The translations under genes were made by a program, and so were the position numbers. From Atractiella rhizophila (lineage: Eukaryota), in the NCBI GenBank assembly GCA_021432655.1, contig MU271273.1:62001-111132 (forward strand): DNA of 49,132 bases, given 5' to 3'. The notes under the pieces were generated by a model. That model was not told where the DNA came from, did not search any database, and saw nothing but the letters and a program-made list of their open reading frames with translations. How positions within the stretch are numbered: position 1 is the first letter of the stretch; every line of letters starts with the position of its first letter. Below, one piece after another: positions 6,138 to 47,103 of this stretch.

Positions 6138-6344
6138 CAGAAAGCCTGTCACAAATGTTACTAGTGCCACTCGATAAAAGTGCGAGCACGCAGAGGGAAA
6201 AAGGTACAGTACACTCCTGACTTCCAAGCTACAGCGATTTCAACGAGCTAAGTCTACCGGCAAGGCTCTGTGCAAAAGAATGGTGAATTGTTCTTGACTG
6301 TGCCCTCGAACCCCAGGCGTTCCGGCCCCCAGGGTAGGGGCAAA

Positions 6345-8152: not shown

Positions 8153-8259
8153 ACCACTAATCATTGAAATCGTAATTGGATGGTGACAGACACTCCCCTA
8201 ATTTACCACTAATCATTGAAATCGTAATTGGATGGTGACAGACACTCCCCTAATTTACC
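8153..8259. repeat. Perfect tandem duplication, 52-bp unit x2
   Basis: 8153-8204 is identical to 8205-8256 (ACCACTAATCATTGAAATCG...CCCCTAATTT), plus a 3-bp ACC overhang. Confidence 0.95.
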
Positions 8260-12645: not shown

Positions 12646-13488
12646 TGGATAGAAGGCCGGCCGGAAGGACAGTGAACCAGCCCCCAGCCTTCCCAAAAAT
12701 AAAACTGGTATATCCTATCCTATACTCTAAGATTCATCAGTTTTCCTATACTCTAAGATTCATCAGTTCTTGGCATGAGTCATAAGACGCACTTTTGAGC
12801 CCTTACACCTCCCTCACCATACACAATAGAATGAAATGTATCATACCATCATATCCCATATGCTTGCCCCTTTCTGAACCTGCAAGGAAATTTTATTCTG
12901 AAAGGGTTGAAAAATGCGTTTTGTACTGGACTCGAACGCTTACACGATTGGATCACTGTGGGGTTCAAGGGGCCATGCCGCTTGCGAGTGGGTTGGGGGG
13001 CCTGAGGGACGAAGGCCCTTGACACACTTGTAATAAATCTATTCTTCTAACAGCGTTGGGTTTCTTGGCATGAGTCATAAGACGCACTTTTGAGCCCTCA
13101 CACCTCCCACACCATGCACAATAGAATGAAATGTGTTGGAAATCGACGGGCTGAGGAGCAGAGCTAAGTATGACTTGGTTACCTTTGGCTGAGCTCTTGG
13201 AAACGCATGAGCACCAGGAAATGGAATTCTATGTGTTTATATGGCTTGCAGCAGTGGCAACTAGAAAGTAGTAGAACATTCCAGGGAGCTGAAGAACTTT
13301 GCCACTGAGTGGCACGAAACTAGACTGCAAGATCCAACAAATGAATTATACAATCATAACCCATATGCTTGCCCCTTTATGAATCTGCGAGGAAATTTTA
13401 TTCTGAGGGGGGTAAAAAATATGGATAGAAGGCCGGCCGGAAGGACAGTGAACCAGCCCCCAGCCTTCCCAAAAATAAAACTGGTATA
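12646..13488 (+). mobile_element. Head-to-tail stack of non-autonomous mini-Helitrons
   Basis: Unit A starts a|TCCTATACTCTAAG at 12718 and unit B starts a|TCTATTCTTCTAAC at 13038. Both continue TTCTTGGCATGAGTCATAAGACGCACTTTTGAGCCC, homologous to the termini at 1230 and 20934. Unit A ends GGGCC...GGCCC...CTTG|T (~13030). Unit B ends GGAAGG...CCTTCC...AAAACTGG|T (13484). 12646-12712 is identical to 13422-13488. Confidence 0.7.
13134..13339. mobile_element. Solo LTR (206 bp) inserted in mini-Helitron unit B
   Basis: TGTTGGA...TCCAACA termini with AATG duplicated on both sides (13130-13133, 13340-13343). Unit A shows the uninterrupted homologous site near 12835. Confidence 0.8.
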
Positions 13489-20469: not shown

Positions 20470-20934
20470 GATGATTCTAAAGTGCGGTCAGAAAGCACTA
20501 AAGGCAGTATATTCTAGCTCACATGTGCTCACTTTCTTCCCCTTAAGGTAGGCAAACAACACTTTTTGGCGCCTGACTTGAGAAATCCCAAAATGCCCTG
20601 AAGAAATAGCGTGCGGCCTTGTTTTGGCGCCGTGTGCTGCGGTTGCTTTGCGGGGCAGCTGCGCACGGTGTTTAGCGGCCAAGTGGGCCAAGTGGGGAAG
20701 CCAGTGGAGCCGGGGAAGGCAGAGTACACGGTTGCAAAGGGTTTGAGTCCGCTGCAAAACACTTTTTCTCACCACTTCAAAATAAAATTTCCTTGCAGCT
20801 TCAGAAAGGCACAAACATATGCAGTAACATGGTGTAATTCATTTCATTTCAATGTGCCTGCTGAGGGAGGTATGAACACTCAAAAGTGCATTTTATGACT
20901 CGTGCCAAGAACGGATGGCTTTTAGAGGTAAGGA
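19057..20934 (-). mobile_element. 5' portion of a formerly autonomous Helitron
   Basis: Terminus a|TCCTTACCTCTAAAAGCCATCCGTTCTTGGC at 20934 is shared with other copies in the window and lies ~465 bp upstream of the RepHel ATG. Confidence 0.8.
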
Positions 20935-21195
20935 TGTGGAACTAAGTGAGTATGTTGTATATCCCGAAAATGAGCCGGATTGCTACTAATTTGACTGACT
21001 TTCACATATTGAATGTGTCGAACTTGTCTTATTCTCCTCTTCTCTCATGCTTAATGCTTTCCTGAATGTTCAAAATTTCGTGACAGAGTATCTAGCAAGT
21101 AGCGACAAGCCAGACGTACGATATACAACCTGTAATTAGACCTTTTAGAGCTTGGAATGCGAATAAAGTGATGTATATATCATAGCCAGTTCTCA
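20935..21195 (+). mobile_element. Possible solo LTR
   Basis: TGTGGAACT...AGTTCTCA imperfect inverted ends and an AATAAA near 21162. No TSD visible because the left flank is the Helitron end. Confidence 0.3.
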
Positions 21196-23301: not shown

Positions 23302-26300
23302 TTGACGACCCATTCTCATGGTCACGTGAAGGTAGCTACTCTAGTGAAGAGATTGGATTTGAACACCCTTTTAATCCTTTTACTAAAACCAATTCGCTCC
23401 GTTCCAAGAAGCACATCAACATTATCCAACAAAATCACCACAAGAGAGGAACGATTATACACTCGTTCATGAATTCTGAGGACAGACATGTGGACATCAT
23501 TTTAATACAGGAACCACCTTCCATAATACCTGACAGTGGCAACCTGATTATTTATCCTGGTTATAAATGTGTTGCCTCCAAAAAAGTGAAGACGTCCGAC
23601 TCAAGGTCTGAAGTCTCACAAGCTATTATTCTTATCAATCAATCATCATTTTCGGGGGAATCCTACATTGAACTTCATAGCAGTTTCCCAGATGTAGCAG
23701 CAGTTCTTTTTATGCCCCCAAGTGGGGAACGTTTATTAATAGTCAACGTTTACAACGGAGGAGGAAAGATAGAGGTCATACATGACATTCGTCTCTTATA
23801 GAAGAATCAAAGTTGAGCGGCCTCCTGAGAGAGCAAGACCTAATCTATATTGCTGGGGACTTTAACTTGCACCACATCGAGTGAAACCCACCAGGGTATA
23901 CAAGATCGGGTGGCAATGTGGACATCATGCTCGAAATATTCGAAGAGTTAGGGCTATCCCTAAGGTCACAGGCAGGAATTCCCACTTACATTAGTGCCAT
24001 GGGTCATGAAACCATTATCGATCTCATCTTTATTAACGAAATAGCCAAAGATTTCATTACATACTGTGTCACTGACCAAGGAGGAGACAGTCATAATTCT
24101 GACCACCATAGGCTGCTCACAACCTTGTCCGTCCTCCCACCTGCATTCGATCCGAGCCCCAAGTATAACTACCAAACGGCCGATTGGGAATTGGTAAGGG
24201 AACATCTGCAGGGGACTAACTTACCTACAGACATTATCTGTGGCACAGACCTTATCTCAACACATGAGGAAGTGGACAAGGCAGTCGAACAGCTTACCCA
24301 GGCACTGGTTGATGTCTCAAAGCTGCTGCCCGAACCTCAAAGAATCAACCAGCAAAAAGGTGGTGGTCAGACCAACTAACAGAGAAGAGGAAGAAGGTTA
24401 ACAAGCTCAGGAACCGTTTCCTGAGATTGTGATGGACAGGTAATAGGGAAACCACAGAAGAAGCTCACACAGTGTAGTGCAAGGCTTCTAACCAGTTTTA
24501 CACTGACTTTAAGGCAGCCAAGTCTCAGCACTTCGAGGACTTTCTTGCCGACCTGGACCAACATTCCATATGGACAGCTCACAAATACGGTAAGAGGGAG
24601 GAGTGGTGCCGTGACATCCCCCCTCTTAAGGGGCAAGATGTCCCCGAAGAGAGTCCCGAACGCACTGTGTCCTCCCCAGCCAACAAGGCTTCCCTCTTCC
24701 ACGACACTTTCAATCCAACAGTGCGCCAGTGTGATCTATCCGACATCCCTCTCCTACTACATCCTCCTCCAGCTTCCTCTCCTGCACTTAAGATAGACAA
24801 AATTGCTGAGGCATTAGATAGGATAAAGGCAACCTCCACACCAGGCATGACGGGTATATCAAACAAATTATTGAAGGAGGTAAGGGAGGAGATCTGCAAG
24901 CCCCTCTTCTCTATCTTTGCAGCGTGTTTCGAAATCAGCTATTACCCATCTGCCTGGAAGAGGTTCTCGACGGTCCTCCGAAAGCCAAAACGTCCTGACT
25001 ACTCCCTCCCCTCCGCTTATCGGCCCATTGCTCTGCTTGACTGTGTTGGGAAGGTCTTCGATGGAGTTATCTTAGCCCAACTCACTTTTCACGTAGACAG
25101 CAGTGGTGCTCTCCCTACCCATCATTTTGGCTCAAGACCCTGCCGCTCAACAAACGATGCTCTACTGACAGTCACAGAGTTCATCAGGGATGGTTGGCGT
25201 AAAAGGGAGGTTACAGCATCCGTTTCACTGCATGTCAAAGGGGCTTTTCCGACAGTAATCCATGACCGGCTCATCAGCAACCTGAAGAGGAGAATGTTAC
25301 CACAACAAGAGGTGGATATCATTAACTCCTGGTTGAGAGAGCACCAAACGACCTACAAATTTGACGGATACACGTCAGAATTCTTTGTCCTACTTGTTGG
25401 ACTGGCATAAGGCTCCCCCCTCTCCCCCATTCTTTACCTATTCTACAATGCTGATTTATTGGAAATACAGACGCCGGAAGGGATCTCTCTCAAATGTGGG
25501 TTTGTAGACGACATCCACATGAATGCCCATGCGACTAACCCGGAACAGGCCATTGCTACTCTAGAGGTGATGCTCGAGAAAGTGATGGTCTGGGGCGATA
25601 TTTGAGGAAGCCAAAACGGACTTCGTCCTTTATGGGAAACTGAAGAGGATGAAATCCCGTTTCGGACGCCTCACCATTCGTGTCGGATCTACAATGGTGA
25701 AGCAGTCATCTGAGATGAAGTACCTGGGAATGCTCCTTGACTCCAGGCTAAACTTCATTCTCACTTAAAAATAATTGAGAAGAAAGCAAAATCATCACTC
25801 TCCCTCCTGGCCACTCACTCCAACACAACGAATGGTATCCCCCTACCTCTATTCCGGCGCCTCTATGAGGCTGCAATATGCACGATGACCGACAACAATG
25901 CAATCATATGGAACCGCTTAGGGTTAAAGACAGGAGGAGCAGCATGACTGGAAATCGTCCAATGGTATGCCCAGCGTCTAATGCTGGGAGCATTCCGAAC
26001 CACTCCCCTCTCAGCACCGTCATATGACTCTAATCTTCCTTATCCTGCCTCCCATTTGGACAGGATTGTTGGAAGAGACACTGTCAGACTTCTTTCTCTA
26101 CCCAACTCTAACCTAGCGTGCATCATCACCAGAAAAATCCTCTCCTCTGCTCAGCCTCGTTCTCACTCCTCCTCTATCAACAACGTCTTCAACTCAAATA
26201 AAATCTCATTTCCGGACAACCTCGAAACTATCCCTTCATTCACCACTCACCCCGGGAATGCAACCCCTTTCGACATCCACCTTGAGAAGACCAAAGAAGA

Positions 26301-26510
26301 CGCTCTCACTACATTCAACAAGCTGGAACAAAAAGACGACGAGGTATGGATTTTTACGGACGGCTGACGCACAGAAGACCGAGTTGCCTGCGGCTTGGCA
26401 ATGACGAACCCAGAAGTGAAAGCGGGCTATAGGATAGGTGGTTGTGATGAGAACACAGTTTTTGAGGCAGAGTTGTTGGGGATTGACCGAGGCCTGGCGT
26501 TGACATATTA
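23298..26510 (+). pseudogene. LINE ORF2 5' part: endonuclease, reverse transcriptase, start of RNase H
   Basis: NIIQQN, DIILIQEP, AGDFNLHH, TIIDLIF, SDHH; YRPIALLDCVGKVF, KGAFPTV, GSPLSPILYLFYNADL, GFVDDI, KYLG; VWIFTDG, VFEAELLGI. Many stops and frameshifts. Confidence 0.92.
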
Positions 26511-29500
26511 TGGGGTATGTAGAAATTGAACAAACATTGCTAAAATTTCACATAGATATTGAACAGCGCGTCATTTCTCTTTTATTCTCTCATTAATTAG
26601 CACCGGACCACTTGGTAAACCTCACACAAGGTCTCATCCACGTAAATACAGAGTTTGATAGACAACGCTCTCATACCTGCAATGCTATAGTGTGCCGAAG
26701 CTGGGGTCTTCTTTTTTGACCCTTTTCAACTCTTTTTGGACGCAGCATAGTTGGTGATGATGATGATGATTCTGCACACCTGCCTTTTTCGGCGGAAATT
26801 CTCGTTGCCTCAATCGAATCAAGACAGCTCGGAAAGCACCTATGATGAAGTTTGCATAACATTTAGATTATAAGTAAGTCTGTTGCCATCTATAAAGCTG
26901 ACTGTAGTCCTAACTTGAATGCTGGGGAAAATTAGAGCCTCCATTCGTCATTGCTGATGACGAAAATGCTCCACATTGAAGGTGGTTACCGGGGAGACTG
27001 TTCCAATGATCCTGTGGTAGATTAGGCTGGAGGAACCAAGGTATTGAATCTGGGAAGTTGGAGTATGCAATTGTTGCATGGATTGGACTTGTAAGTGGTG
27101 ACTCTGATCGTGGGTTGGACGCGAGGTCGGGTCGAATGGGCGCTTCAGAGGTATGGGGGATCGTGGGAAGCCGCTGTCAGGTAATTTTCGCTTTTGTTGC
27201 GATTCAGTGGGGTCTGAAGGACCAGGAAGTTGGCCTAGAACCCTAATCAACACTGGATTGGTTTGATTGTCAAATACAACGTACGGTCACCTGCTGCCAA
27301 GCTTGAAGCAGTGGCATATGTGGAATGGGTGAGAGAGCGTAATTGTGGGAGAGATGTTGGAGGTGTTGTTCCATTTGTCTTGCCCCGCTTCTGAATTAGT
27401 TTGTTCTTCTTAGCTTCTTCCCGCTCCTTCTGTTTCCTCTTTCTCTCTTCAGCTCTTTCTTTCTTCTTTGCTTCTTCTTCTGCCTTCTCCGCTGCTCTCT
27501 CAACTGCTTTCATCGCCCTTTCCTGCTTCTTCCTCACATCTTCCGCTGCCTTATCTGCTGCCTCCTTCTCTTGGGCTTCCATTTGCCTGTATGCTTCACT
27601 CCCGCTCAACAGCCGTGCAGTTGTAACTAACTCTGTTTTCTTCCCAGGCTTCCTCTTGGACTCCAATGACATCCGGAGCTGCGCATTCTCCCTCACACCC
27701 ATGTGAACCGACGTCCTCAACACTCCTTCCCGACGACGAGTTTGATGAAGTTCCGAATCTAAGGCAGATAGAGCTTGGAATAGGAGGACAGGGTCACTGT
27801 GACTTGTCAACTGGATCTTCTTCCCATCTGGACCTCGGAAGATCGTAAGTGGTTTCTTTGGATAGAAATCACAAGGCCTGATTGGACTGGTTAAGGAGAT
27901 TGGAATGGTTACATCGGGATTAGTCCGTTGGATGGGAGTACAAGATAAGGAGGGAGCGGACTGTGATTGTGGAGGGTTATCTGGCAGTTGATCAATGTGG
28001 CTACCGGCATTGAAAGCAGATGAAATGGGAGGCAACTGGATTATGGGAAATTTGTGAGCCTCGAGTTCTTGATCTGACTAGGCTTGTGAGGTGTGGAGGT
28101 TGATAAGCTGGAATCCGACATGAATTGTTGATGGTTCTGGGGCAATATCCCTAACCTGGATACCATCTGCTTCGTTATCATCTTGCAGAGAGGGAGAGGT
28201 AGGTGTTTCAGTCGGAGCAGGATCGTCAAAGTTGAGAAGGTCGGAAGGAATGCAGTCTGGAAACTGTGTGCGTGTTGATGAATACTGAGCTGGTGCAAAA
28301 TCAGCTTCTGTGAAGTGATTGCGATCAATTGATACTGCTCCAGAAAGATCATCAACTTGAACACCAGTGGCTCTCCAACTGTTGACCATTGTTGATGGCT
28401 TCAGACCATCTGCATGACACTTCAAATACCTTGAAATGAGGTTTTTCTTTGAAATATCACGTCCTTCTTCGAGCATATCGTCCGTGACCTGGCTCCAGGC
28501 CTTTCCGATTGGTCCAAAAACACCGACGTCCAACGGTTGAAGTTTATGCGTCGTGTGTAGCGGCAGGCAAATGATGTGGACGGTATTGTGAAGATGTTCC
28601 CAAACGTAGCGGATAATGAGTGCCGACGAGTGAGAGCCATGGCCATCGACAATAAGAAGGCAGGGACGTCTTGGATCTGCCCGGCTGTTAACCCATGGTA
28701 CATAGACCAGCGTGAACCACAGATAGCCAAGTACTTCATCCGTCCAACCATTTTCGGAAACAGCCACGCTAAGCAATTTTAATGTCAACAACACTCCACT
28801 AATGGATATAGAGAAAGATGAACAAAATCTCGTCCCTCTGTTGTTCCGTCAACCCTTGGAGCCAGCCTTTCTGATACCGTTTTCCCGAGAAAATAAAGAG
28901 TGGGTTCAGCCATTGCCCACTTGCAGAAACACACTCAATGAGTGTGATCAATTCTAGCTTATCTGACTTCGCACGATAGATAGCCTGTCGCTCCGCAGGT
29001 CCAATTACTCGCCGCACCCCCATCTTGCGGCCTCCTCCTAACTGCAAACCCTTCTCATCCATATTTGTTATATCTTCTGCTAATAAGCCATACTCCTCAA
29101 TCTTTTTTTCTAGCAGATCATAATAAGATTGCACATTCCTCCGATTGAAAGCTTGTGCTCGTTTCGGATCAAGAGGGTTTGCTTTGAAGCTTTTGATCGT
29201 TTTCCCATTCCTCTTCATAAAACGATAGTACCATCCATGTCCCAGCCGTCTTCCAACAATCTTCTTGACCACCAAATATAGGCCTCTTTTACTAAGAGGA
29301 AGTCCAGAATCCCCAACCCATCGAAGCCAGTCAACTAAACCTTCTTCTTCACCTTCAGTTAATAATCTTTGGCTCAAGTGACTCTCAACAGCATTTAATC
29401 CTCCTTGACAGCGGTTCCTGAGAGTAGTATGCTTCATAAACACAAAACCACCCTTTCCATCTGGATAGGAATACCGCTGTGCCACTTGCCGATAGGAAAG

Positions 29501-30134
29501 TGCGCACCCCTTCTTGATCTGCTCTTCTTTTTGACTCTTCCAGTAAATGTCTACTGCCTCCACCAAATCTCTTTCCTTTCTTACCACCCAGTCCTCCTCT
29601 GTTAACTCCTTCTTCGGCGGCATTTGAGGGATGCTGCCGCGTGCTAGAGAGGAAGGAACTGCGTCGAAGTCGCGACTGGGGACAGCACGTTATGAATAAC
29701 AAGTCCAAGTCCGTGTTTCCGGCACCATGTGACCCAAAAGGTCGTGTCAAAGTGCGCAATTTAACTTTATTGCACAGTCTGTTGCGCACCTGTGGAGCTG
29801 AGCATTGGCAACTTTCAACAACTGACCATCTGGCCCCACTTTGACCAATCACTTTCAAACAATGAGAAGTTGCTTCTGAGCCTTCTGTTTTGAATCTGAG
29901 CACAAAAAAGATATGAATTTGCATGTAGATTCTTAGAAATCTGGGGATTCAGGAGCGATGTCATTTTTCACAATATCTCAAAGACCGATTCCACAACCGA
30001 TTAGATATTTTGTGAGAATGTGCGAAGATAGTAGGTGATCCTGAATATACAAAAGCTAAGGAATTGATGTATATTTGAAAAATTTTAATATATGGTGTTC
30101 AATATCTAGGTATGTTCAATATCTCCGTAACCCA
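26511..30134 (-). mobile_element. pogo/Fot1-like (Tc1/mariner superfamily) DNA transposon, 3624 bp
   Basis: Imperfect 22-bp TIRs: TGGGGTATGTAGAAATTGAACA versus reverse complement TGGGTTACGGAGATATTGAACA. TA on both sides (26509-10, 30135-36). The LINE RNase H is split exactly here. Confidence 0.9.
27247..29623 (-). CDS. pogo-like transposase (CENP-B-type HTH + DDE_1), spliced; C-terminal part possibly interrupted
   Basis: RLLTEGEEEGLVDWL, NMDEKG, SENGWTD, LLIVDGHGSH, CLPLHTTHKLQPLDVGVFGP. Probable intron ~28825-28772. A downstream charged coiled-coil ORF at 27247-28035 follows. Confidence 0.85.
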
Positions 30135-30136
30135 TA

Positions 30137-30960
30137 GTAGTGCTCAATAAATCACGAGGAACTAGATCCTTGGTCCGTATTTTCACGGATTCCCAAGCAG
30201 CAGACAAAAACCTGGCAAAAAGCCGAAATGTAAACCTGGGGTCAGCGTTGTCAAGAGCACCCACCATCTAGCCAGCTCCTTCAAACGGCACTTTCCACTT
30301 TCTAATATATCCCTTCATTGGATACCCGGTCATGCGAAGATCAAAGGAAACGAGCTTGCGGACAAGGCCGCCAATGATGCCACAAACATCAAGATAGCCA
30401 CCGGCAGCCACCCACTCCTTAGGAGTCCCTCAGCTTTTCGAGCGACTATAACTACATCTACATTCTACCACTGCAACACCTTCCCCCTATTCACGGGAAA
30501 ACATCACCGTTCACTTGGACGTACTATCTCCTCCGAAGAAACGTTCCAAATGCTCTCCGCCATGCCCAGAGCGTAATCCTCCATCTTCGTTCACCTACGA
30601 TCGCGATACGTATGCAACAACAACTACCTGCGCAAAATTGAAGCTAACGAGGACCCGAACTACGATCACTGCGGGATGAGGGACACTGTCACACACCTAT
30701 TCTTCGAATGCAAACGCCTTGAGACAGAAAGAAAGAAGTTGAGAGTCAGGCTAAGGCGGAAGCACATCCGCTTCAGATCGCTCAGTGACTTACTGAGCAA
30801 CCCGGAAGCGGTAAAAGCAGTGTGGGAGTTCATAAGGAAGAGTGGGAAGTTCAAGATATGGGTCAAAAAGGCGCAAAAGGTACTGGACAGGAGGAAGGCA
30901 GAGAGGAAGGGAAGGGCGAAGGGACGAGAGGAGGATCAACAGGAAGACGGGGAGGATTAA
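30137..30960 (+). pseudogene. LINE ORF2 3' part: rest of RNase H and C-terminal Zn finger
   Basis: RIFTDSQAA, HWIPGHAKIKGNELADKAA, CGMRDTVTHLFFEC. Confidence 0.9.
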
Positions 30961-31238: not shown

Positions 31239-33055
31239 TCACAACAAGAACAACAATCTTCCCTGAGACGTGGTACCACCTTCTCCGCTGGCAATATAAT
31301 TGTGCAGCCTCTCCTCTACTTCCCCTCGATATACGGCCGCCATCTTCTCCCGCTTCTCCAACCTCTCTTGCTCCTTCCTATCCCTTTTTGCTTGATGCTC
31401 ATCTTCTGCCCTCACTTCAGCTTCCTCCATCACGTCCAGTTGAGCTGCTTTAATCGCTCCAACATCTTTCTTTACAACCTTCCGGGTCCGGGTCACCTTT
31501 GACTCACTGTACGAGTTCTTCCATCGTTGGATTTCCTTATTCTGTTGTATGACAAGTGTCTAAAGGCATTGATTAGATGCTTGTAGACCCTTGACGATCT
31601 TGAGTGCTCGTCCTTTGGTGGTTTGGAGATCAGCGGTGGAAGGTTGGTTGTTAAGAAGAAGAAGGTCTGCAGTTCATCTTGAGGTATTCGGGGTGAGCTT
31701 ATGGAAGGGATCAGTGAAGGCGGAAGAGAGTGTCATTGAGGGGGATGATCCAGGGTTGGCTGCTTCCTGTGCAAGTCGACAAAGAGGTTCCAGACCATGA
31801 ATCGCTACTGATGTCAACAGGCCAAATTTCGGAGACTTCAAATGCTTTCTTGATCCGATCTGGTGTGTAAGTATTCTCCTAAAATAATATGAAAATCGAT
31901 TCTTCTTTATGTCCCTCCTCTCCCTTAGCTCGTTGTCCAATATCCGAGAACAAGACAGCTGCAGAAAGCTGAAAATCGCAACTTTAGTGGGGAGGTGAGA
32001 TGGCTAGTATGAGGGATGAGGATGAAGGGAAGGATATAATGAGTGAGTACAAATCAGAGGAAGGAGAAGGTGAGGTAAGAGCCATGACCATCCATCAAGA
32101 GAAGCTGCCATTTACCATCGGGGCAGCGGTTCTCCTCCTCAAAGAAGGCTAACCACTCGCGGCCCAGTTTATTGTCGGTCCAACCGCTCTCTGAATTGGC
32201 ATAATGTGCCGTCTTGATTCTTCCCTCCATCCAGCTCTTCATGAAGTTCTTTCCGGTGAAAATAATCATGGGATTAGCTGCTTTACCACTAGTATTGATA
32301 CATTCAATGACTGTCACCCACTCATAATTCCCATCTATAGTATTCTCCCCTTAACCATCAAACAAACAGAAGTGTAAACTCATCCATTACAAATTGAGGA
32401 TTCTTCACTTGATCCTTCCTTCTCATCACCACATACTCCTTCTGAGAGACTGCAAGCATAAACCCCTTCTCATCAACACAATTCACTTGATCAGCATCCA
32501 CAATCCCATATTCTTTGCAAACCTTTCCCAGCTCCTTCCACCACTTCTCTAACTCTTGATAAGAGATGTTGATATGTTCCTTCTCAATCCGTTGGGCTAC
32601 TCGATTGGCGATTCCAGATGGCATTTCATGAACCCCTCTTACCAGCCACAACTGCTGACACCATCCGCTGAATTTTCTGGGTGGGTCTCTATGTAAAGCT
32701 CTTTCGCAAAGTTGATGATGTACTGCTTCGTGACGGGGTAAAAGATCAGTTTGCAGAAGTTGTATATTTCGACAATGGCATCCTCTTGAGCTGGTGTCAG
32801 CTTTTGCCGTGACTGCATGTCTTCATCCTTCGTTCGATGGCCCTGCAGTTGATTCACGAGGCTTTGGGGAGAAACGCTAAATGTTCTCGCTATGGCAGTA
32901 ACATCGATTGGAAACTGCTTTCCCTTGTTCTTGGCCTGTCTCTTGATGTAGGCAGGGGTGTCTTGAATGAGCTGTCGAGCATAGGTTTTGGATTTGTGGA
33001 GAGCTTCAGTCTTCACTTTTCGAGATTTAGAAGGTTGTTGTTTTGGTCTGGTCAT
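31239..33055 (-). pseudogene. Second pogo/Fot1-like transposase relic
   Basis: QKLTPAQEDAIVE (HTH), NCVDEKGFML, VTVIECI, NSESGWTD, LLLMDGHGSY and a charged C-terminal piece. Frameshifted, with the third DDE block missing. Paired TIRs were not found. Confidence 0.85.
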
Positions 33056-33597: not shown

Positions 33598-35857
33598 ATG
33601 CCGACAGAGTCGACTCCTTCTCCTCAAAAACAGAGGCAATCTTCCTTAGCAGTTCCCGAGCAACCCCATTCCACTCCTTTCAACCTGCGCCATTCTGGAT
33701 CTGACGTTCACGCATCTAACATCGAATACCCCGAAGCGTATAGAGCGGCTGAAAGAGAGACAAGAGGGAAATGGGTGTCTGTGAAGGTAGACAAGTTTAT
33801 GGGGATGATTAAAATGAGCAGCCCTGAGGCTGAAGAGGCACTTTCAGGGCTGCTCGAAAGACGCGAGCCCATCATCCTTCCAGCTGCTGAGACCAAGCAG
33901 TACGATGTCATGGTACGTGCTCTTTATCAGTCATGGGGATGGGTTTCATGGGTCGAATAGATAGAATCGATGAGGTGTTACTTGGATAGCGGATGGCACC
34001 AGGTTAATACCTCCGCTCATATCGATACAAACATTCCCGAGATCTTCGGTGCAACTGGGGTAAAACCGGATATCATTCTTTATTCGCCGTCCAGAAAGGT
34101 CGTTGAAGGTCGGATTACGGATATGAAGGAGGCTGATTTGTTTTGGGAGTTTAAAATTGGTGTCCTCCCGTTTCACGACGCTCCCAACGAAAAGGGCAAA
34201 GGCAAGGAGAATCCCGACGAAGTTGAGATCGAAAGCAATACCTTGGAAGCGAGGATCAGGAAGGACGACGACGATGATATCCCAAGCGGCTTTGAGAATC
34301 GAGCCGACAACGCGTTGGAGCTTCGTGGCCAAATAACGCTTTATAACACTGTCGTCCAAATCCTCCAACGCAGGACCCGCGTCTTTTCCATCTATATTTG
34401 TGGAGAAACAGCGCGCCTCGTTTGTCATTCTCGCACCGGCACTGCTGTCACCCTTCCGTTCAATTACAATAAGGAACCCTATCTTCATCAATTTTTGTTC
34501 CAATACACGCGCGCTACCCGAGTTCAACGGGGGGCATGACGACACGTACAAGGAACCGAGCGACCCTGTCGAGGAAGAAAATGCAAGGGACCGCCTTGGC
34601 CTTGGGGCTGACGATCCACTGTACGTCGTCAAGTTCGGTTTGGCGAGCTATTACGTCTCGAAACCTTTCACCGACTTTCACATGTATCCTGTCGGCCGTA
34701 GCACGAAATGTTTCTATGCTTATTGCCCTCGTTTAAAGAAGCTTGTACTTTTGAAGGATATCTGGAGGAAGATGGAGTACGAAAAGGAAGGAGACACGCT
34801 TCGCAAACTTAATGTTGCAAACGTCCCCAACGTTCCCGCCATTCTTGACGACTGCGATATCGAGGGCGACCTTCAGAAGATCGAGGAGCCTTATCGCCAG
34901 GCGATGCAACATTACGCTCAGGTAACTGACAAGATCGGACGCCCTCTTTCTTCCTTCACGTCCAGCTGGGAAATGGTCAACGCGGTTTGTGACGCCATTC
35001 GAGGTATGTTTCTGCCGCGTTTTTACTGTTTGTCTGACCAGAACACAGCTCACGAAGCCGCATGGGAGAGAACGAACATTTTAAACCGCGATATTTCCTC
35101 AGCGCAACATCCTTATTTACGATCCACCATCAACATCTGACCGCGGCTCAGTAGAGTCGCAAGGACTTTTGATTGATTGGGAAATGGCAAAAGTGGAGTC
35201 GTCAGAGTCATTCCCACGGACTACTGAACGTACTGTAAGCCCTCTCACTCAACTGCACGACACAATTCTGAATGGTGAACGATGTAGGGTACCCATCAAT
35301 TCATCGCTCTTGAACTCTTGAGTTCAGGTCGCGCCCAACACGAACCACGACATGACCTAGAATCATTCATCTATGTCTTACTCTGGATCACAATACGACA
35401 CGCCAGGTCCAGGATGGTAGAGGCCGACAGGGACAACTTGCTGGAACATTTCGATCGGAAAAGAACCATAGCGAGAAGTCACGCGGCGAAAAAAGATCTT
35501 CTGAAGTCCCCCTCCCAAGTGTTACATCTCCGATTAGACACGCCGGAGCTGCGCAACACCCTCGAGTCAGTTTGGCGGCCCTTTCAGGCTTATATGGAAG
35601 CCGTCGAACTTGGAATGAACCGTGAAGTTGACAAAATTATCTTGACGCATTCAATTCTGATTGAAAAGCTTGTATCTGCCCTTGGAAACAAGAATTGGAA
35701 ACAGACGAAGGATGCTGCAATCGAGTTTATGGTGAGGAAGCGGAAGAGAAAGGATGAAGATGAAGATGAAGGTGGAGAAAGAGAGGGAAAAGGTCACGGA
35801 GTGGAGGGAGACGAATTGATGCACGAAGTGATGCGAGCGGTGGTGGAAGGAGTGTGA
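33598..35857 (+). pseudogene. Fungal-type protein kinase (FunK1 / Pkinase_fungal), spliced, two apparent +1 frameshifts
   Basis: WEFK, RGQITLY, RTRVFSIYI, GRSTKCF, VLLKDIWR..EKEG, ILNRDIS..NILI, GLLIDWEMA, GTHQFIALELL, HEPRHDLESFIYVLLW. Introns near 33913, 35004 and 35235. Extra base in the G6 run at 34529-34534 and near 35105. Confidence 0.85.
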
Positions 35858-37963: not shown

Positions 37964-38846
37964 CCCACCAAGCAACCGCCCTGGCTTGACCTGGGACACT
38001 GACACTGACGTCAGTAGCTGAGGGTGAAAACCCCTCCGGACACTGTTGGTACCACTGTGGACACACAGTACAGGGGCGTGGTGCTGTGATGGTGCCAAGC
38101 CTCCCCTTGTTTCTCAGTGAATGCGTTTCTCGGTGAACGCGTTTCCAATGTGCATGAGATCCGCAGCCTTCACACAAGGAGATAGGATACCATTTAGCCG
38201 AAGCTTAAAGGCATAGCGATCACATGTGAGGTTTTAGTGGGTATTGTTCATAGAATGGAGCCCCACACTGTTCCTTTGCCGATCACGGCGGGTTCATGCG
38301 TAAAAAGCATTTCCTCACCCAAGGGGAGGACAAACTCAAAATTTCCGACAAAACACAGTTCTGGAGGGACATACCAAGAAATGCGGCTGAAAGTTTGTCC
38401 CACAGTGAAATAGCGGTGAAAGAATTGTGAATTCTTGTGAACAAGTCAGCGTACAACAGAAAGTCAACGTCGAGCTCAGCACATTAGGGGGTGTCAAAGT
38501 TGTGATAAATCCCACTTGTCAAGCGGCATGCATTCGCCTAATCGGGGTTGATGATGATGAACTTAAGTGCACATGCAGGCTTATATGTGACTCAAAAGAC
38601 ACGCGCCTCAGAGAGCCGCATAACACACACGCGAAAGCCAGTAAGCGCACCTGTAAGCAAGAAAGGTCGTCCGGGTGCGGTCGCGAACGGTGCAGATCGC
38701 TAGATGTCCGGGAAAGTTGCAGCCAACTGCAGCTCCTTGCATGAATGGTATCTTCGCTCACCAAGCTTGTTCGCTGAAGGACGACCTGCACTCCCTTTTT
38801 CTCCCAGCTCTCCTCTCCCAGCTCTCCCAGCTCTATTAGCGTCAAC

Positions 38847-41145
38847 ATGTCACCAAAAGCCGCAGCCAGAAAGCGTGGTCGACCAGCCAAAAGGACGGCA
38901 GTCCCGTCATCTCCGGCTGTCAATACGGTGCAGGCTGTTGAGTTCACACCGATGGAGTAAGTTCTTTCCTCCTTTGCTCTCTTGGTACTTAGGAAGGGGT
39001 TTGGTGGTTTTGTAGGTGGACTCACGGCCTCATCACGGCGATGCTCGACTTTGTGAAAGACGATGATTATACTCGTCGAGGTCTCTACCCTGAGAATGGT
39101 GCTCGTTCCACGTCCATCAAGAAGGTGGAGCATTACCGAAATGTCGCAAAGAAAGTCTTTGGACGGTTTCCAACCTACAGCCAATGGATTTCTCACCCAG
39201 ATGAGAATATCGCAGAACAAGCTCGTATTTACTATGGAGCTTTGGTTAAGAGCAAATTAGAGTAGTATGTATTCTCATTTCTATCTTGGTTGGCGCTCAG
39301 TTTGTGTGACTTTGAGTCATTGGAGTGTTTTCTGCCACATCATGCATCGGGTCCTAATGTCTCATGTGGACTACATTCCCCATCTGTCTCACAGGTTTCT
39401 CCTTTTCTGTACTCCTTGACTAATACTTTGGTATGGGAATAGCTTGGATAAGCGATATGAGCAGCTCAAGAGTAACATGTCCAGCACCGGAGCGGGTCTA
39501 ACAGAGGAGGAGGTGCGAGAGAATCCGGAAGCACGGAATAAGCTTGGTTTGTGGTTTCCAACTATCTCAGAGTGTTTCTAATTACTGGTCTAGATGCGAC
39601 ACTGAAGAAGTTCCCATACTGGTGGCACATGTGCGAGCTGAAAGGACAACGCCACAACATCGCCGCACCTTCAAAGGGCAACTCTGCCACCCCGATTGAC
39701 ATCGCCCGCCTTCAGCAGAAGGATCCTCAAGCTGTGATTGTGGAGGAAGAGGAAGGTGAGGTGGATGAGCTTGTAGACGAAATACCAAGCTTCGTTGCGG
39801 TTGCAATGAAGGAGGTTCTGTCTGGCAACGGAGATGAAGAGCAGGATTCGGAGCAGTTGACGGATGAATTTGTTGGTATGCACCATTTCTATCTTCTATC
39901 TTCTTTGTACTTGATCTGATAGAGAATCATTAGTAAGAAAGGCAAATGTGTCTGATCAGCTTGAACCTGGCCATCTTGATAACGGTTTGTACTTTCTCCT
40001 GGCTCTTTTCCGACTGGCTAAGCTAACAGAGGAACAGCTGTGTGTGCGGAAGAACACCCCTTCAGTTTTGAAATCAACGCTAACCATGTGGGTATCGCCC
40101 TCACTGGTGATGTTCCTGGTCCTCCCGCTGTGTTGTCCGATGAGAGCGAGTTGGAGGAAGTGTTGATGCAGAAGCAGTTAGCACGGTCTAACCGTCGCCT
40201 GGAGAAGAAATATGGGAAGGGACCGTAAGGCATTTTGGTGATTAGTACCACATTTAAGATTGTTGATTGCTATTTTGAATCACACTGGCAACACGGGCAA
40301 ACACATTTAAGTTGAATGTGAATCCTCCCACAATGACGGATAAAATCCCCAACGTCACGCTGACCAATCCTGCCAACTCCTCCAAAGTCACTGCCAAATC
40401 GATTGGAAGGAAGGGAAAGCATCCGATCTCGCTGGATGACAGTGATGAGGGAGAGTCGAAAGCCAAACCTGCTCAACGAGTAAGTATTTGGTTTTGAAGT
40501 GTTCCTGGCGATGAAGATGCTTACCTTGACTAGGGACCTCAACGCAACATGCTCGGTAACCTTGGTACAGCCCTTACAGATATGAGTACAGCTACTGAGG
40601 CCAGGCGAGCTCAGCAAGAGGTCGAACGTCAAGACACAAAGCGCCAAAAGCAAGTTCTGGATGCGGAGCTTGAACTGAAGAGGTTAGATTTCAAGCGAAG
40701 AAAGCTGGAACAGGAAGCTGAGGACAAGAAAGAAGATCGGCAGCTTAGGAGAGAAGAGATGCAGCTACACACGCAGATGTTTCAGCTCCAGGCACTCGGG
40801 ATGGCTGGGTTTGGAGGTGGAAGTTCTTTTGGATTGGGAGGTGGTGGAGGATTTGGCATGTTTGGAGGCGGTTTTGATAGTGGTCAATTCAGTATGGCCG
40901 GAGGTAGTATGTTTTGTGCTGGCCCAGGAGTTGGAGCTGACATATTTGGTATGGGACTTGGAGGAGTTGGTGGAGCCAGCATGTTTGCTAGGGGTGGAGG
41001 AGGAGGATTGTTTCCTGCGGGAAGCACACTTGGTGGCGCCGGAATGGAAAGTGGTGTAGTTCAACCAGTTGCAGGTGTTGATGGCCAACCTGTTGGCGCT
41101 GCTGAAAGGATTCAGGAAGTAAACCAGATGGAACTTGAGGTATAA
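38847..41145 (+). CDS. Harbinger accessory DNA-binding protein (AT-hook + Myb/SANT-like, coiled coil, Gly-rich tail), multi-exon
   Basis: MSPKAAARKRGRP, intron ~38957-39015, WTHGLITAMLDFV..., KFPYWWHMCELKGQR. Last exon 40549-41145. Lies inside the TIRs, opposite the transposase. Confidence 0.7.
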
Positions 41146-41231
41146 ACAGTGCTTGATAACTCTGTCATGGTCATTTCTTTTTTGATAACTACTCAGAGGT
41201 TACTATGATACTATCCAATGTATCCATTTGT

Positions 41232-42879
41232 TTATATATCCTGGGTTGCTAAATGTTCCACTAAAGCAACCTTCAGCTCATTCCTCCTCTTCCGTGCTTC
41301 CTCAAGCTGACGCGCTCGAACTCCTCGACCTAAATCTTCATCATGATCCACAGCCCCCTGCTCCCAAGGTCTGCCATATGTCTCCCTCAGCTCACGTTCA
41401 AATGCCATGCCATCCCGGCAGAAAGCATCCTTGCTCAGGTCCAAATCTTGTTCATCATTGAAAGCAAACATATGGACAATCATGCAAACTCGGATCCAAT
41501 CTTGAACCATTGCAATCTGCTGTTGATTGTTAAGGAGAAGGCGTAATTCTTTGAGTGATTGGAAGCGACCTTTGAGGTATCCAATGGCATGTTCTGCGGC
41601 GATGCGAATACGTGAAAGGTGAACATTGAAAAGACGTTCCGTTGCATTACCGTCTTGTCACACAGTTGCTTGATCATAAGGAATAATCAACCAGTCCTGA
41701 ATTGGGTATCCTGAGTCTGCCCAACACCATTCATCCTCTGCTAGAAGTGCAAAGTGACGATTACGAGGAACCACTCTGTCCATCTTCTCTTGCCAGAGTA
41801 AAGAATCCTGTCTACGTCATTAGCACACCGGTGATATCGTAAGAAATTGAAACCCATTAACCTTTAGAACTGTGCCATCAGTTTTGCTTCCAACATGACC
41901 AACAGTATAATCAATAATCCTCGCATCCGGTGTGCAGAACACCTATTTATAAATAAACACAGAGCAAATGTAAGTTCAATGAGAACTGGGGCAAACTAAC
42001 CGCAATGCTTTCACAATAAGTAGATTTTCTTCCATACCATGTATCCCCTGCCATATGTGGTTTTTGGAACATATTAATCAATGTTCCATCAACCATACAC
42101 CATCCGCCCTTCCATTCTTCACAACCTCCTGCAATTTCTTTTGCCATTTCCTTATACTTCTTTCGAGATGATGGTCTAGGCCAAAAAACGGACTGTTTGG
42201 CAAGAGAGGGCATTAAGAGGATGGCAGTGATCACACGAAAACAGCACAGCTCTATCATTCCGGTGCTACAGCCAAAAATGGCGGATAGGGAATCAAGTGA
42301 TTCTGCATTGCCATAGTGTCCTAGACGGTGGAGGAGAACAGCAAGCTGATATCGAACTGGAGACTGAGGATTGTGAGACTTGTTCTGAAAGATAGGATGA
42401 TGCTTGATTGCTTTTAGAAGCTTCTGGAAGCTGATTGGATCAATGCGGACGGCTTTGCGAAACTTTTCTGGCTTCTCGCAGTAATAGGGGCCAAAAAGCT
42501 TGGTGACATAACTGGTACTGAATATCGCTTCATCCTGGACATGGGTGCGGAGGCTCAGATATCTCTGAGAATTGAGAATCTTGAGAACTTGAGTAACGGG
42601 GTCGAAATTGGAGCTGTCAGAGTCGGATTCAATACTGGAGGAATCATCCTTGAATGCAGTAGAGCTATTGCTGCTGTCTGAGGATTCTTCACTACTGCTC
42701 TGGCTGGACATAGAGTCATCGCTATCATTGTATTGAGCAGGTTCCGAGCCTGGAGCACCATCTGAGCCGGAGCCATGATCCGAATCATCATCTGAGTTGA
42801 TGAGCTCAATCAGTTGTTGAAGTAGTTTATGAGGCATAAACTGCTCTACTGCAACTTGCCGATCTGTCTGGCGGGTCAT
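41232..42879 (-). CDS. PIF/Harbinger DDE transposase (DDE_Tnp_4-like), spliced
   Basis: FRKAVRI...F..LL, QLAVLLHRLGHYGN, GWCMVDGTLI, WYGRKS; after two introns (~42000-41945, ~41860-41810) WADSGY and FNVHLSRIRIAAEHAIGYLKGRFQSL. Confidence 0.9.
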
Positions 42880-43326
42880 GGCAAATCAGGAAAGGACGGT
42901 TCGCTTAAGGCAGATAGCTGACGCAGCCCCAAGGGCAGGAAGATAGTTTGGCCCCTTTGGTGAGGGCTGAATTGCGAGCCGGGCAACTGCCGCTTGCAAG
43001 CTGGCAATAACGCAGCCTGAAAAGCAGGTTTTTGGTGGGGGTCTCAAACCCCAGCAAGCTGCTTATTTTTTTACTCATCATTTCATGCAGACTTGCAAGC
43101 CGCATATTTAAATTTATTGATTCAACTTTGACACCCCCTATTTTATCAACCCAGTTATCAACCAACGAGAAGCATTCAACCCACCAGTCTTCAGTATAAC
43201 AGGTCACAATCAGCTTCAGTGAGAGGAATTGAAAGTCACAACAGCTGTACGGCGTGCCAGGAAGTCTCAAGGGCCGAGAGGGGCACGCTTCAACTCCAGC
43301 GTGGGTCTGAGTGACGGTGCTGAGGA

Positions 43327-44204
43327 GTGCTACAGCCAAAAATGGCGGATAGGGAATCAAGTGATTCTGCATTGCCATAGTGTCCTAGACGGTGGAGGAG
43401 AACAGCAAGCTGATATCGAACTGGAGACTGAGGATTGTGAGACTTGTTCTGAAAGATAGGATGATGCTTGATTGCTTTTAGAAGCTTCTGGAAGCTGATT
43501 GGATCAATGCGGACGGCTTTGCGAAACTTTTCTGGCTTCTTGCAGTAATAGGGGCCAAAAAGCTTGGTGACATAACTGGTACTGAATATCGCTTCATCCT
43601 GGACATGGGTGCGGAGGCTCAGATATCTCTGAGAATTGAGAATCTTGAGAACTTGAGTAACGGGGTCGAAATTGGAGCTGTCAGAGTCGGATTCAATACT
43701 GGAGGAATCATCCTTGAATGCAGTAGAGCTATTGCTGCTGTCTGAGGATTCTTCACTACTGCTCTGGCTGGACATAGAGTCATCGCTATCATTGTATTGA
43801 GCAGGTTCTGAGCCTGGAGCACCATCTGAGCCGGAGCCATGATCCGAATCATCATCTGAGTTGATGAGCTCAAGCAGTTGTTGAAGTAGTTTATGATGCA
43901 TAAACTGCTCTACTGCAACTTGCCGATCTGTCTGGCGGGTCATGGCAAATCAGGAAAGGACGGTTCGCTTGAGGCAGATAGCTGACGCGGCCCCAAGGGC
44001 AGGAAGATAGTTTGGCCCCTTTGGTGAGGGCTGAATTGCGAGCCGGGCAACTGCCGCTTGCAAGCTGGCAATAACGCAGCCTGAAAAGCAGGTTTTTGGT
44101 GGGGGTCTCAAACCCCAGCAAGCTGCTTATTTTTTTATTCATCATTTCATGCAGATTTGCAAGCCGCATATTTAAATTTATTGATTCAACTTTGACACCC
44201 CCTA
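43327..44204 (-). mobile_element. Truncated second copy of the Harbinger right end (TIR, promoter, 5' transposase)
   Basis: 878-bp direct repeat of 42263-43140 (offset 1064). I counted 8 substitutions by eye. Ends at the TIR followed by AAT. Confidence 0.95.
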
Positions 44205-44374
44205 ATGTGCTTGGCGTTACGCGTTACCACTCCAATCGAAAGAGTACTGTATAAGGATAAGGATGCCAAGAACTGACACATCTTAGAGGAAAGCATCTTC
44301 CCATCTCCCTCATTTGCACTTTACGATCAAGAGGATAATTCAACTCGAACTGTCTCAATGATCCAATAGTCGGG

Positions 44375-46710
44375 ATGGCAGACAAACTCCCGGCCAAATT
44401 TTTCGAAGCGGTCAGTGCTTGTTCCCTTCTATCCTTAATTTGACGGGACGGGGACGGGGCAGGCTGACAGCCATAAGAAGCACCAAAGATGGGAAGAGTT
44501 GCTCATAATGTCGCAGTCTCTGATGGACTCTCAACCCGATAGTATAGGGAACTTGGCGGGACGCTATTATCGACTAGTCGCGGTACTATCAAACGGCTCA
44601 ACAAAGTGGGCTCCTTTACCGCGTTTTCCTACATTTAAACACATTGGAATGCTATTGGATCTTCGGGGACAGGGCAGCGGTTGAGGATCTGGTGACCCTG
44701 GAAGAACTAAGACAGGACGCCGTCAAGATATTGAAAGCCGGTGCATCTCGCACAGACACAGTATTCTCGAATGACGTCCACTATCCACTTTTTTTTCTGG
44801 TCCTGCTCTCGCTGGAACTTAAGGATGGGAATCTATTTGCGCCTGGTGTCGCTGGTTAGTCGTGTCCTCTACGTCTATACTACAAGGCAAACTCAGTTCA
44901 ATTTCATTCAGGAATGACTTTGCAGTGTTTCACTCGACAGCATTTGTTTGTTTCCTGTATTATTCCCACGCTCCTGGATGTTCGTATTGGATATGTGAGT
45001 CTGTTTCATGCCGCATGGGGATAGAGCTCAGCGGCATTCAGTCCCAGTCCGAAAGTGTTTATTCTGATCTCCTGCAAGTCGAACCGACTCAGAAAAGGCA
45101 CCTCTGTAATACCTTTCCCCTTGCCGCCGAATGGATTGCGAAGATCATTGACGAAAAGAAGGTCCACAAGAAAATAGAGAGAGCGGCCGCCCGCGCTAGG
45201 ATTCGTATTGTGCGCGTGGATCGTGTCCGGGACATCGTGGAGGAGGCAGCGACGGAGAACAAGCTGTTTTTCCTTCTCGGTACGTTTCTTGCTTCTATTG
45301 ATCCCAAGTTGGGAGTTCAATAATTTCCTTCTCTGTAGATCCATCTGGTGAGGTCGACCTCCCCCCCTTCTCCAGTACGGAATCCGAAATCCCACAAAGG
45401 ACGAACTCCGAATGATCATTTACGACTGGCGTTGGATCTAAAGGACTTGATCGTCATCCAACCTACATCAACTGCCGATGAGCTCGAGCCCCAGCCGGAG
45501 TCTGTCTACATCCTCGACCAGGGTTGGCTGCTGGAGAACAATCATCCCGCGGCAGATGAGGGCTGGCAGCCTGAAAATCATGATGAAATACCATTGGAAG
45601 CTCTGGTAATGTCCTTTGATACATTCCATTGTTCGTATCCTAAGTAATCTTTCGCAAATTTACAGATCGCCACTGAACACTTCCACATGCTCGATGACGA
45701 TGTCGACTGGGATGCGATAGATGCGATAGGCTCTACCCTGGATCTTCTCGCTCCCATAGTTCGTCATAAAAGGCAACCGAACACCTCACAAGGCGGCATG
45801 AGCGGATTTAGTGGTCCCCGCGCTGCTCAACTCAGGGGAACGGTTGGCACTTTTTCGTTGAAAACTGGCAAGGTGAGCAGATGATAACACATGCTGACCT
45901 TGGTTCGCTTATATTTGATTCCTGAGGGCAGAGGCCGCGTGAAAATATTGACCAGGATGACCTCATATATCAGAAGCTCTCTGAAGGAGAAGACAGAGAG
46001 AGATGTAAACTGGCATTGGCGGACGCCAACAGCGGTACGTCACTCTCTCTGCAAACATGGTCCCTCAGATGGATCTAGTGGTCGGATGTCGCATTTTGAC
46101 TCTGATGCACAACGTCGTCCCGGAAATATACCACGACTGGAGCATGTCCAACCAGGAACATCCATCGAATGTGAATCTCCAATTGCTTCCGGTCACTCAA
46201 TATTGCGCTAGCGCTTACATGGGACCATCTCACATCGACAAAGTCGATCGGAATTTCACATACAGCCACAACGCTTTCAACGAAGAATACGAGGGCTTCC
46301 CACTGGCAAATGCCATGTTTATTCCGGCGTTCAACGTGAGCGAGCAGTCCGATCTCGTTTGCCCGAGACTAACGCTATCTGATTAGCTCGTTCTCACGAC
46401 ACCTGGCGGCTCCGTACACGGTTGGAGGAGTCGCGACCTCTATCACGGAACTCTGCTAGCGCCGCCGTATTACGGAAAAATTCGCATCGTCCAAGGCGAA
46501 CCTCTCTTCAGGCCGGCTCTGGGTATAGTCACACTGGCAAGCAGCAGAGTCATAAACGAAATCAGGAAAGGCAACCTTGAACATGGAATCCACCGGCACA
46601 ATGGTTGGACCCCGGAAGCCCTCTCGAAGTTGAATGGAGTTGCCGAGGCAAACAAGAACAAGCACATTCGAAGGCGTTGGGATAATATGCGCGCTGCATC
46701 GTCGATGTGA
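44375..46710 (+). CDS. TET/JBP-like 2-oxoglutarate/Fe(II) dioxygenase, multi-exon
   Basis: Spliced C-terminal region: GGMSGFSGPR...GTF, LMHNVVPEIY, YMGPSHIDK (HxD at 46231-46239), MFIPAFN|LVL...VHGWRSRDLYHGT (distal His at 46444), stop at 46708-46710. Intron 46336-46386 has GTGAGC/CTAAC/TAG signals. The start and 5' exons are tentative. Confidence 0.72.
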
Positions 46711-47103
46711 ATAACCGTCCAACGCGCTGCTAGCCCACGTTTCGAAAGAGTGGACATCTTCTAATCAAACAGATGGGTTCGAAGAGGGTGGAGACCGTCG
46801 AAAGTGTCATCAGAGGTGAGGTTGGAGGACGAAAAGTGGTATAAAAGGCGTAGTTGGAGGATGAGGCGAAGAAGAGACTGTGTTGAAAGGTTATAGGGAT
46901 GGTTGTACAGAAACTCTGAGAATCATCCTCGAAATCGGGATTGCCTGGGTGGCAAATGACGGCCATTCGTGATCCATTGTACAATGCTTAGAGACTACGC
47001 GTCTCGTCGGGCTAAATAATCTTCTGGACGAATCCAAACTCAGCACCCTGGATTTCATTCAGTTTACCCACCCATCGACTTCGCATCAGTTCCGCATCAA
47101 AGT

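Follow-up and report, generated by a model that had tools for sequence, protein, structure and literature searches.

What kind of protein is encoded by a gene that appears in the open reading frame (ORF) track of its locus as fragments only? This question is raised by a 49,132-nucleotide stretch of the Atractiella rhizophila genome (GenBank assembly GCA_021432655.1, contig MU271273.1, positions 62,001 to 111,132 of the forward strand; hereafter the window, in whose coordinates all positions are given). At 44375..46710, beside the end of a Harbinger transposon, an initial annotation made from the letters alone had proposed an intron-hidden gene for a TET/JBP-like DNA-base dioxygenase. The gene is real, intron-rich and transcribed, and its C-terminal ~280 residues probably form a strongly diverged Fe(II)/2-oxoglutarate (2OG) dioxygenase of the TET/JBP type, a reading with indirect support from language-model neighbours, motifs compared by eye and conservation.

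The gene lies on the plus strand, running from an ATG at 44375 to a stop codon at 46708-46710, the same limits as those of the initial annotation. It consists of ten exons (44375-44410, 44463-44605, 44673-44854, 44912-44994, 45042-45279, 45339-45605, 45666-45872, 45932-46034, 46079-46335 and 46387-46710) separated by nine GT..AG introns (44411-44462, 44606-44672, 44855-44911, 44995-45041, 45280-45338, 45606-45665, 45873-45931, 46035-46078 and 46336-46386), in agreement with the proposal that introns hide it from the ORF track. Among the public runs aligned to 44100-46900, all nine joints are present in contigs of run X3, and introns 3, 7 and 8 are also spliced in run X4, a soil metatranscriptome with RNA on record and contigs 95-99% alike, while none of the nine joints occurs in the DNA run X1. 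The kind of run X3 is unrecorded; we treated it as RNA-derived because its contigs skip introns that X1 keeps. Intron 8 measures 44 nt, with a joint recorded as 46033>46078 in both X3 and X4. The splicing check suggested with the initial annotation concerned the joint 46335|46387, which connects the exon carrying a His-x-Asp (HxD) motif to the exon carrying a His-Gly-Thr motif; this joint is present, in frame, in an X3 contig whose shorter arm measures 255 letters. In addition, the paralogue models P0001, P0002, P0005 and P0006 are co-linear over the exon junctions. Run X5 holds two small unspliced pieces only. An earlier acceptor of intron 1 in draft gene models was replaced by the RNA-supported joint. 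As a separate observation, an X1 DNA contig diverges from the window at 44419, inside intron 1, into a (GAT)n run, which suggests that another copy or allele has a microsatellite variant there.

When the RNA-supported exons are joined, the coding sequence of the window amounts to 1840 nt and is out of frame. A run of seven C in exon 6 (45361..45367, plus strand) has one C more than the transcript, which produces a frameshift and a stop after ...RTNSE, and the window copy would end after ~262 residues. An acceptor at 45375 in exon 6, which would bridge the frameshift, was ruled out by the RNA joints. The transcript form, with six C, is an open reading frame of 612 residues, so that the spliced reading of the initial annotation stands for the RNA-derived form and fails for the window copy as it is. 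One base fewer at 45361 is observed in X3 (55.9 of 55.9 depth) and in the DNA of X1 (778.8 of 1730.4); since only part of the X1 depth is without the extra C, both the 6-C and the 7-C form seem to be present as DNA. The paralogue models P0005 and P0006 are in the 6-C frame. The transcripts seen derive from a copy or allele without the frameshift; because X3 also departs from the window elsewhere, at a small number of positions, their source is a copy, allele or strain that is nearly identical, and not demonstrably the window copy.

The public model of the locus, P0004 (425 residues; window 44375-46075; annotated as hypothetical protein, Atractiella rhizophila), equals the window product exactly, to exon 8. 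It bridges the frameshift of exon 6 by an invented intron and overlooks intron 8, ending in ...ANSGTSLSLQTWSLRWI (SLRWI), and because intron 8 is overlooked it is without the HxD and distal-His exons.

We then focused on the protein, with residue numbers referring to the 612-residue transcript form. Exons 1-6 (44375..45605) encode an N-terminal region of ~316 residues, probably helical and without a Pfam match. The first ~330 residues belong to no recognisable family, as the initial annotation had stated for its long uncharacterised N-terminus: the best ESM Atlas score for this part was 0.87, with mixed TPR-like leads whose template-modelling (TM) score was at most 0.42, obtained with a poor model. 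Exons 7-8 (45666..46034) begin the conserved C-terminal domain and carry the glycine block GGMSGFSGPR (residues 359-368). Exon 9 (46079..46335) carries SHIDKVD (residues 470-476), with H471 and D473 as candidate Fe(II) ligands, and exon 10 (46387..46710) carries WRSRDLYHGT (residues 518-527), with H525 as the candidate distal His. The HxD (SHID), the distal His and the upstream glycine block named in the initial annotation are therefore all in the 612-residue form, and at the level of motifs a 2-His-1-carboxylate triad (HxD ... H) is present. When the protein was shuffled 20,000 times, the combined motif pattern was found 0 times, a count that is descriptive only, because the pattern was composed after the sequence had been viewed.

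The Arg that would bind 2OG, expected in TET/JBP some 10-25 residues past the distal His, was regarded as ambiguous in the initial annotation, and it is still so, with two candidates, both in exon 10 on the plus strand. The first, R538, closes the motif GKIR (residues 535-538) at +13 from H525 and does not vary among the three sequences that reach this position. The second, R547, stands at +22 from H525 in the strand-like stretch FRPALGIVTL (residues 546-555), which is covered by the window only; a low-threshold hhalign comparison pairs this stretch with a phage Y-R-I-S-x-V-Y-Y strand. The grammar HxD...H...R is common to the whole 2OG/Fe(II) superfamily, and counts in favor of an alternative in which the protein belongs to that superfamily but not to TET/JBP (AlkB-like, or a hydroxylase of proteins or small molecules) that does not act on 5-methylcytosine (5mC). 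The distal-His strand may also resemble its counterpart in E. coli AlkB.

Between these two kinds of oxygenase, the language-model neighbours of the paralogue P0001 speak for TET/JBP. In the ESM Atlas, two Tet_JBP (PF12851) clusters lead at 0.95, sharing 210 and 202 of 256 features; by the Atlas's own figures, roughly one shuffled protein in 100 also scores 0.95, and more than 170 shared features are typical of true members. The Tet_JBP family set is found on 23 of the 30 neighbours, and all ten of the best family-bearing hits share the family or clan of the best one, as also happens for a third of shuffled proteins. The Atlas does not return Tet_JBP by default: the N-terminal part gave only 0.87 and mixed families. 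As for the competing oxygenase families, neither AlkB nor any other 2OG family was matched either in the profile and PDB sequence searches given below.

A second line of support comes from the PU-type TET proteins of Pucciniales DNA transposons (Kojima 2025, PMC12730594). Compared by eye with rows 32-35, 49, 65 and 88 of Table S1 in that paper, the window protein shares four motif blocks with the PU type, which follow one another in both in identical order and at comparable distances. The G-x-M..G-x-R block is followed by an H-x-D-[RK]..[FY]-T-[FY] block, the His of which lies ~102 residues further on in the PU type and 112 in the window protein; in the W/F-R-x5-H-x-T block the His stands at +7 in both; and the fourth common block, R..L-G-[IY]-x-[VT], begins at residue 547 of the window protein, where the R547 stretch can be likened, again by eye, to A-R-L-G-Y-S-V of the PU type. 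The resemblance of the G-x-M..G-x-R and W-R-x5-H-x-T blocks to the PU type argues against an oxygenase of another family, as does the multi-copy setting at the side of a transposon described below, which is that of fungal TET/JBP genes (PMC12730594).

Several results weigh against the TET/JBP reading, and most of them come from profile methods. No Pfam match was obtained for single exons (E<=1), for P0001 (E<=10) or for P0002 and P0006 (E<=1). Searches of PHROGs and NCBIfam with P0001 at E<=10 gave no 2OG-dioxygenase family and stray weak matches only, and likewise no dioxygenase family was found in PHROGs and NCBIfam with P0003 or in NCBIfam with P0002. Among PDB sequences, to which profiles of the family were compared, no TET, JBP, AlkB or other dioxygenase chain was found at E<=10, the matches being chance ones at E 0.4-0.8. 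For a direct comparison we used gp2 of the Mycobacterium phage Cooper (Tet_JBP, E 4e-8) and its viral relatives, in sets of 7 and 80 sequences that represent one phage subfamily. In hhalign, the family reached a probability of 0.5-0.7% and an E-value of about 0.1 against these phage Tet_JBP proteins; without the row of P0006, an N-terminal model, the score was 16.6, which 28 of 100 column-shuffled queries equalled or exceeded, that is, chance level. At low threshold, hhalign pairs GGMSGFSGPR with the invariant F-G-x-A-P-R-R of phage Tet_JBP, in an alignment whose total score is not significant, and it places the phage H-R-D some ten residues C-terminal to SHID rather than on it. The profile check against 2OG-Fe(II) and Tet_JBP families that accompanied the initial annotation thus gave no match.

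This silence is, in our view, weak evidence against membership, because known members barely reach each other. In a calibration on PDB sequences, the phage Tet_JBP profile reached NgTet1 with an E-value of 0.011 and TET2 with one of 0.5 only. Moreover, Cooper gp2, itself a known member, scores 28.2 bits against a Tet_JBP cut-off of 34.9, and HHpred E-values of 1.4 and 19 are given for the accepted PE type (PMC12730594, section 3.2.3).

Structure prediction and the PU-type comparison add further points on the opposing side. An AlphaFold2 model of P0001 had a mean predicted local distance difference test (pLDDT) score of 36.6 and one of window exons 9-10 (intron read through, X at the stop) a score of 30.3; neither contains a beta-sheet, and the confidence of both is unusable, with input alignments of six to nine rows only. 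The strict PU block G-x-M-[FYW]-[SA]-L-G-W-R-K-G is absent, the window having GGMSGFSGPR instead, and six 4-mers of the window have no exact match in the part of the supplement of PMC12730594 that was searched. The likeness to the PU type is itself a visual comparison and not a computed alignment. In addition, the R547 stretch (RPALGIVTL) is missing from models P0001 and P0003, whether by annotation or in reality, and the window copy is frameshifted.

In a further alternative, the gene would encode no enzyme at all but a lineage-specific, repeat-associated protein with coincidental HxD and H-x-T motifs and misleading language-model neighbours. Such an outcome would fit a family seen in one species only, without a match to any family or solved-structure sequence, with AlphaFold2 models that lack a beta-sheet at unusable confidence, with two members devoid of the RPALGIVTL strand and with a broken copy in the window. 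It is harder to reconcile with a score of 0.95 that about 1 in 100 shuffled proteins attain, obtained here together with 210 shared features, a count typical of true members, or with the four blocks whose order and approximate spacing, by eye, are those of PU-type TET (PMC12730594).

The pattern of conservation speaks against it as well. Identity of the paralogues to the window is 52-63% in the N-terminus, 70-72% in exons 7-8 and 74-81% in the HxD exon, peaks at 93-97% over 30 residues round the distal His (506-535), and falls to 37% in the tail, so that the most conserved stretch of the family is the candidate distal-His strand. All candidate ligands are kept: H471 and D473 in the four sequences that cover them, H525 and R538 in all three. 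Among the 30 exonic differences listed, 12 are synonymous, compared with 23% expected for random changes, an excess that indicates mild constraint at best. With both sides considered, we regard the absence of any enzyme as unlikely. The oxygenase of another family, which accounts for the lack of a Tet_JBP profile match and for the chance-level hhalign result against phage Tet_JBP, appears to us quite improbable. The divergent TET-like enzyme of the initial annotation is accordingly favored by the ESM neighbours, the motifs shared by eye with the PU type and the conservation, and lacks a profile match; its membership in the family is not established.

How far the family extends was also investigated. 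Word-seeded searches gave six models, P0001-P0006, on five contigs (16706, 193560, 133650, 111132 and 5484 nt), all of them from A. rhizophila, and phmmer with P0001 as query found four proteins among 1.84 billion representative proteins. Metagenome contigs, scanned twice, gave 53 and 110 pattern matches and no relative among them, and in a tblastn search of 50,697 phage records P0001 had a single chance match at E 10. In X1, 91 contig pieces lie on the region and include overlapping variants that are 90-99% identical; the depth of X1 is not readable as copy number, and the multi-copy state rests on these overlapping variant contigs together with the six gene models. Since the phmmer and word-seeded searches, the metagenome scans and the X1 variants agree, the family is small, multi-copy and, as far as the searched collections go, confined to one species.

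The neighbour of the gene is a PHISTA-like Harbinger element (38487..44202) with its transposase on the minus strand and a 16-bp perfect terminal inverted repeat, GGGGGTGTCAAAGTTG, with TA on both sides. The TA flanks, at 38485-38486 and 44203-44204, belong to a palindromic site, AGCACAT-TA ... TA-ATGTGCT. The transposase, of the DDE_Tnp_4 family, was recognised at 41235-41657 (minus strand; E 8.6e-7, 29.1 bits, cut-off 24.8). TA duplications define PHISTA, and its elements in rusts encode a transposase together with TET and one more protein (PMC12730594, section 3.1.4). A DDE_Tnp_4 transposase, a TA duplication and the terminus GGGGGTRTCAAA, the three features by which PHISTA was tested for, were all found in the window element. 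Its terminus GGGGGTGTCAAA agrees with the Puccinia PHISTA consensus GGGGGTATCAAA in 11 of the first 12 bases (PMC12730594), an alignment with a score of 10, where the maximum among 2000 random 40-mers of the window was 7. An 878-bp direct repeat (42263-43140 and 43327-44204, 99.1% identical, with 186 unique bases between) duplicates the right terminus, at 43138 and at 44202, and only the outer of the two has a flank that mirrors the left one (AGCACATTA / TAATGTGCT).

The gene and the transposase are arranged head-to-head, and the ATG lies 172 bases past the terminus at 44202, close to the ~170 bp of the initial annotation. An X3 contig covering 44101-44409, with two other letters, runs from inside the Harbinger end across the terminus into exon 1. 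The leader (44101..44374, plus strand) therefore carries Harbinger sequence, although the start of a contig need not be the start of the transcript; a sequence resembling the terminal inverted repeat, GGGGGTCTCAAA, at 44101 coincides with the start of this contig.

The gene stands outside the inverted repeats of the Harbinger, and a search of the window, which ends 2.4 kb past the stop codon, found no inverted repeats around it; both facts count against the main reading. The adjacency could be accidental, the element having landed, in a repeat-rich region, upstream of one gene copy of a family that spreads or duplicates by other means. Besides the position of the gene, this agrees with an X1 contig that matches the 5' flank of the gene from 44204 rightward only and whose left part is unrelated and not found in the window, with a search from the gene to 49132 in which neither a credible further PHISTA terminus nor coding sequence like that of Harbinger was found, and with the several unrelated mobile elements (LINE, DDE_1) of the window. 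Conversely, an X3 contig spans the Harbinger end into the gene, rust PHISTA elements do carry TET genes, and the consensus of TET-carrying PHISTA measures 6.5-8.5 kb (PMC12730594, Table S1), so that a unit starting from the GGGGGTCTCAAA at 44101 could end past the window. We consider the case for an accidental adjacency to be evenly balanced.

The initial annotation had also noted that no KDZ or Plavaka transposase is recognisable at the locus, and none was found among 171 of the 179 stop-to-stop ORFs of at least 80 residues in the window. From this it had suggested a new mobile context. In that respect it was anticipated: for rust fungi, TET/JBP genes have been described in transposons of the Harbinger (PHISTA) lineage and of six others (Kojima 2025, PMC12730594), and in the present case the gene lies outside the terminus.

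The nearest known counterpart is the PU-type TET of that paper, which resembles the window gene in its occurrence in the subphylum Pucciniomycotina, its multiple copies and its association with transposons that include Harbinger/PHISTA. The window gene differs in coming from the Atractiellomycetes, in its ~330 extra N-terminal residues and in being without LGWRKG, and whereas PU-type TET genes lie between transposon termini, it is placed outside the inverted repeats (PMC12730594). The window element likewise agrees with PHISTA in its TA flanks, terminus and DDE_Tnp_4 transposase, but has no TET gene between its termini, and its internal repeat of 878 bp supplies a second terminus. With the Pfam family Tet_JBP (TET1-3, JBP1/2, NgTet1, CcTET and phage TETs) the window family has in common the candidate HxD...H...R grammar and the language-model neighbours, and differs in having no profile match and an hhalign score at chance against the phage members. 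As for other basidiomycetes, Iyer and colleagues (2014, as cited in PMC12730594) reportedly described lineage-specific TET/JBP expansions linked to KDZ transposons; the window family is alike in its species-level expansion and repeat-rich setting, and its neighbour is a Harbinger.

Atractiella is not named in the text of PMC12730594 or in the part of its supplement that was searched, and among the matches listed no paper names Atractiella beside dioxygenase, transposon or 5-methylcytosine. What is new is a far more divergent family in another class, with a long N-terminal region, a position outside the inverted repeats and a shortened public model.

Should the C-terminal domain be such an enzyme, H471, D473 and H525 would hold Fe(II), and an Arg after the distal His, R547 or else the family-invariant R538, would bind the C5 carboxylate of 2OG. 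The enzyme would then act on a methylated DNA base by oxidising its methyl group, in the likeliest case converting 5mC to 5-hydroxymethylcytosine and further, and base oxidation could oppose the methylation-based silencing of the repeats that travel with the gene. Because the mRNA leader starts inside the Harbinger terminus, expression of the gene may be coupled to that element. The double-stranded beta-helix fold, enzyme family, substrate, anti-silencing role and promoter coupling are all what we infer. In its fullest form, the proposal would be that of a fourth, Atractiellomycete type of fungal transposon-linked TET/JBP, too divergent for any profile method to detect, fused to a helical targeting region of ~330 residues and transcribed outward from a PHISTA end. 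It would act against silencing from a place immediately beyond the inverted repeats that drive it, and would be either in the course of capture or release by the transposon or a domesticated copy; we think this unlikely as a whole.

If the TET/JBP assignment is true, transposon-linked enzymes of the DNA demethylation type would extend from the rusts to a second class of Pucciniomycotina. Surveys by profiles and public gene models would overlook such genes, as at this locus, where the deposited model ends ahead of the exons with the catalytic motifs. An enzyme gene located beyond the transposon ends, and yet with the terminal region in its mRNA, would bear on moves between transposon lineages. 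If the protein is no enzyme, the locus would hold an ordinary species-specific, repeat-associated gene.

Other features of the window include several mobile or repeated sequences. Pieces resembling a long interspersed nuclear element (LINE) occupy 23885-30573 (plus strand), with Exo_endo_phos_2, RVT_1 and RNase_H ORFs; the element is interrupted by an ORF for a DDE_1 (pogo-type) transposase at 28081-28848 (minus strand), and a further DDE_1 piece lies at 32057-32350 (minus strand). Short repeats at 1142-1231, 12744-12941, 13062-13134 and 20737-20935, 77-96% alike and in direct and inverted orientation, resemble copies of a small non-autonomous element, and at 8153-8259 a 52-bp unit is perfectly duplicated in tandem. 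Among the coding sequences, an ORF of 590 residues at 4470-6239 (minus strand) has a weak F-box-like match (E 1.4e-4, under the cut-off), and an ORF at 8841-9161 (plus strand) has HAT/TPR repeat matches (E about 6e-5, under the cut-offs). Two Pkinase_fungal ORFs at 34337-35854 (plus strand; E 6.5e-13 and 6.4e-10) are probably one gene, either split by an intron or broken. Finally, a Clr2_transil ORF at 10756-11751 (minus strand; E 8.4e-17) means that the window holds a gene for a chromatin-silencing factor as well as the TET-like gene.

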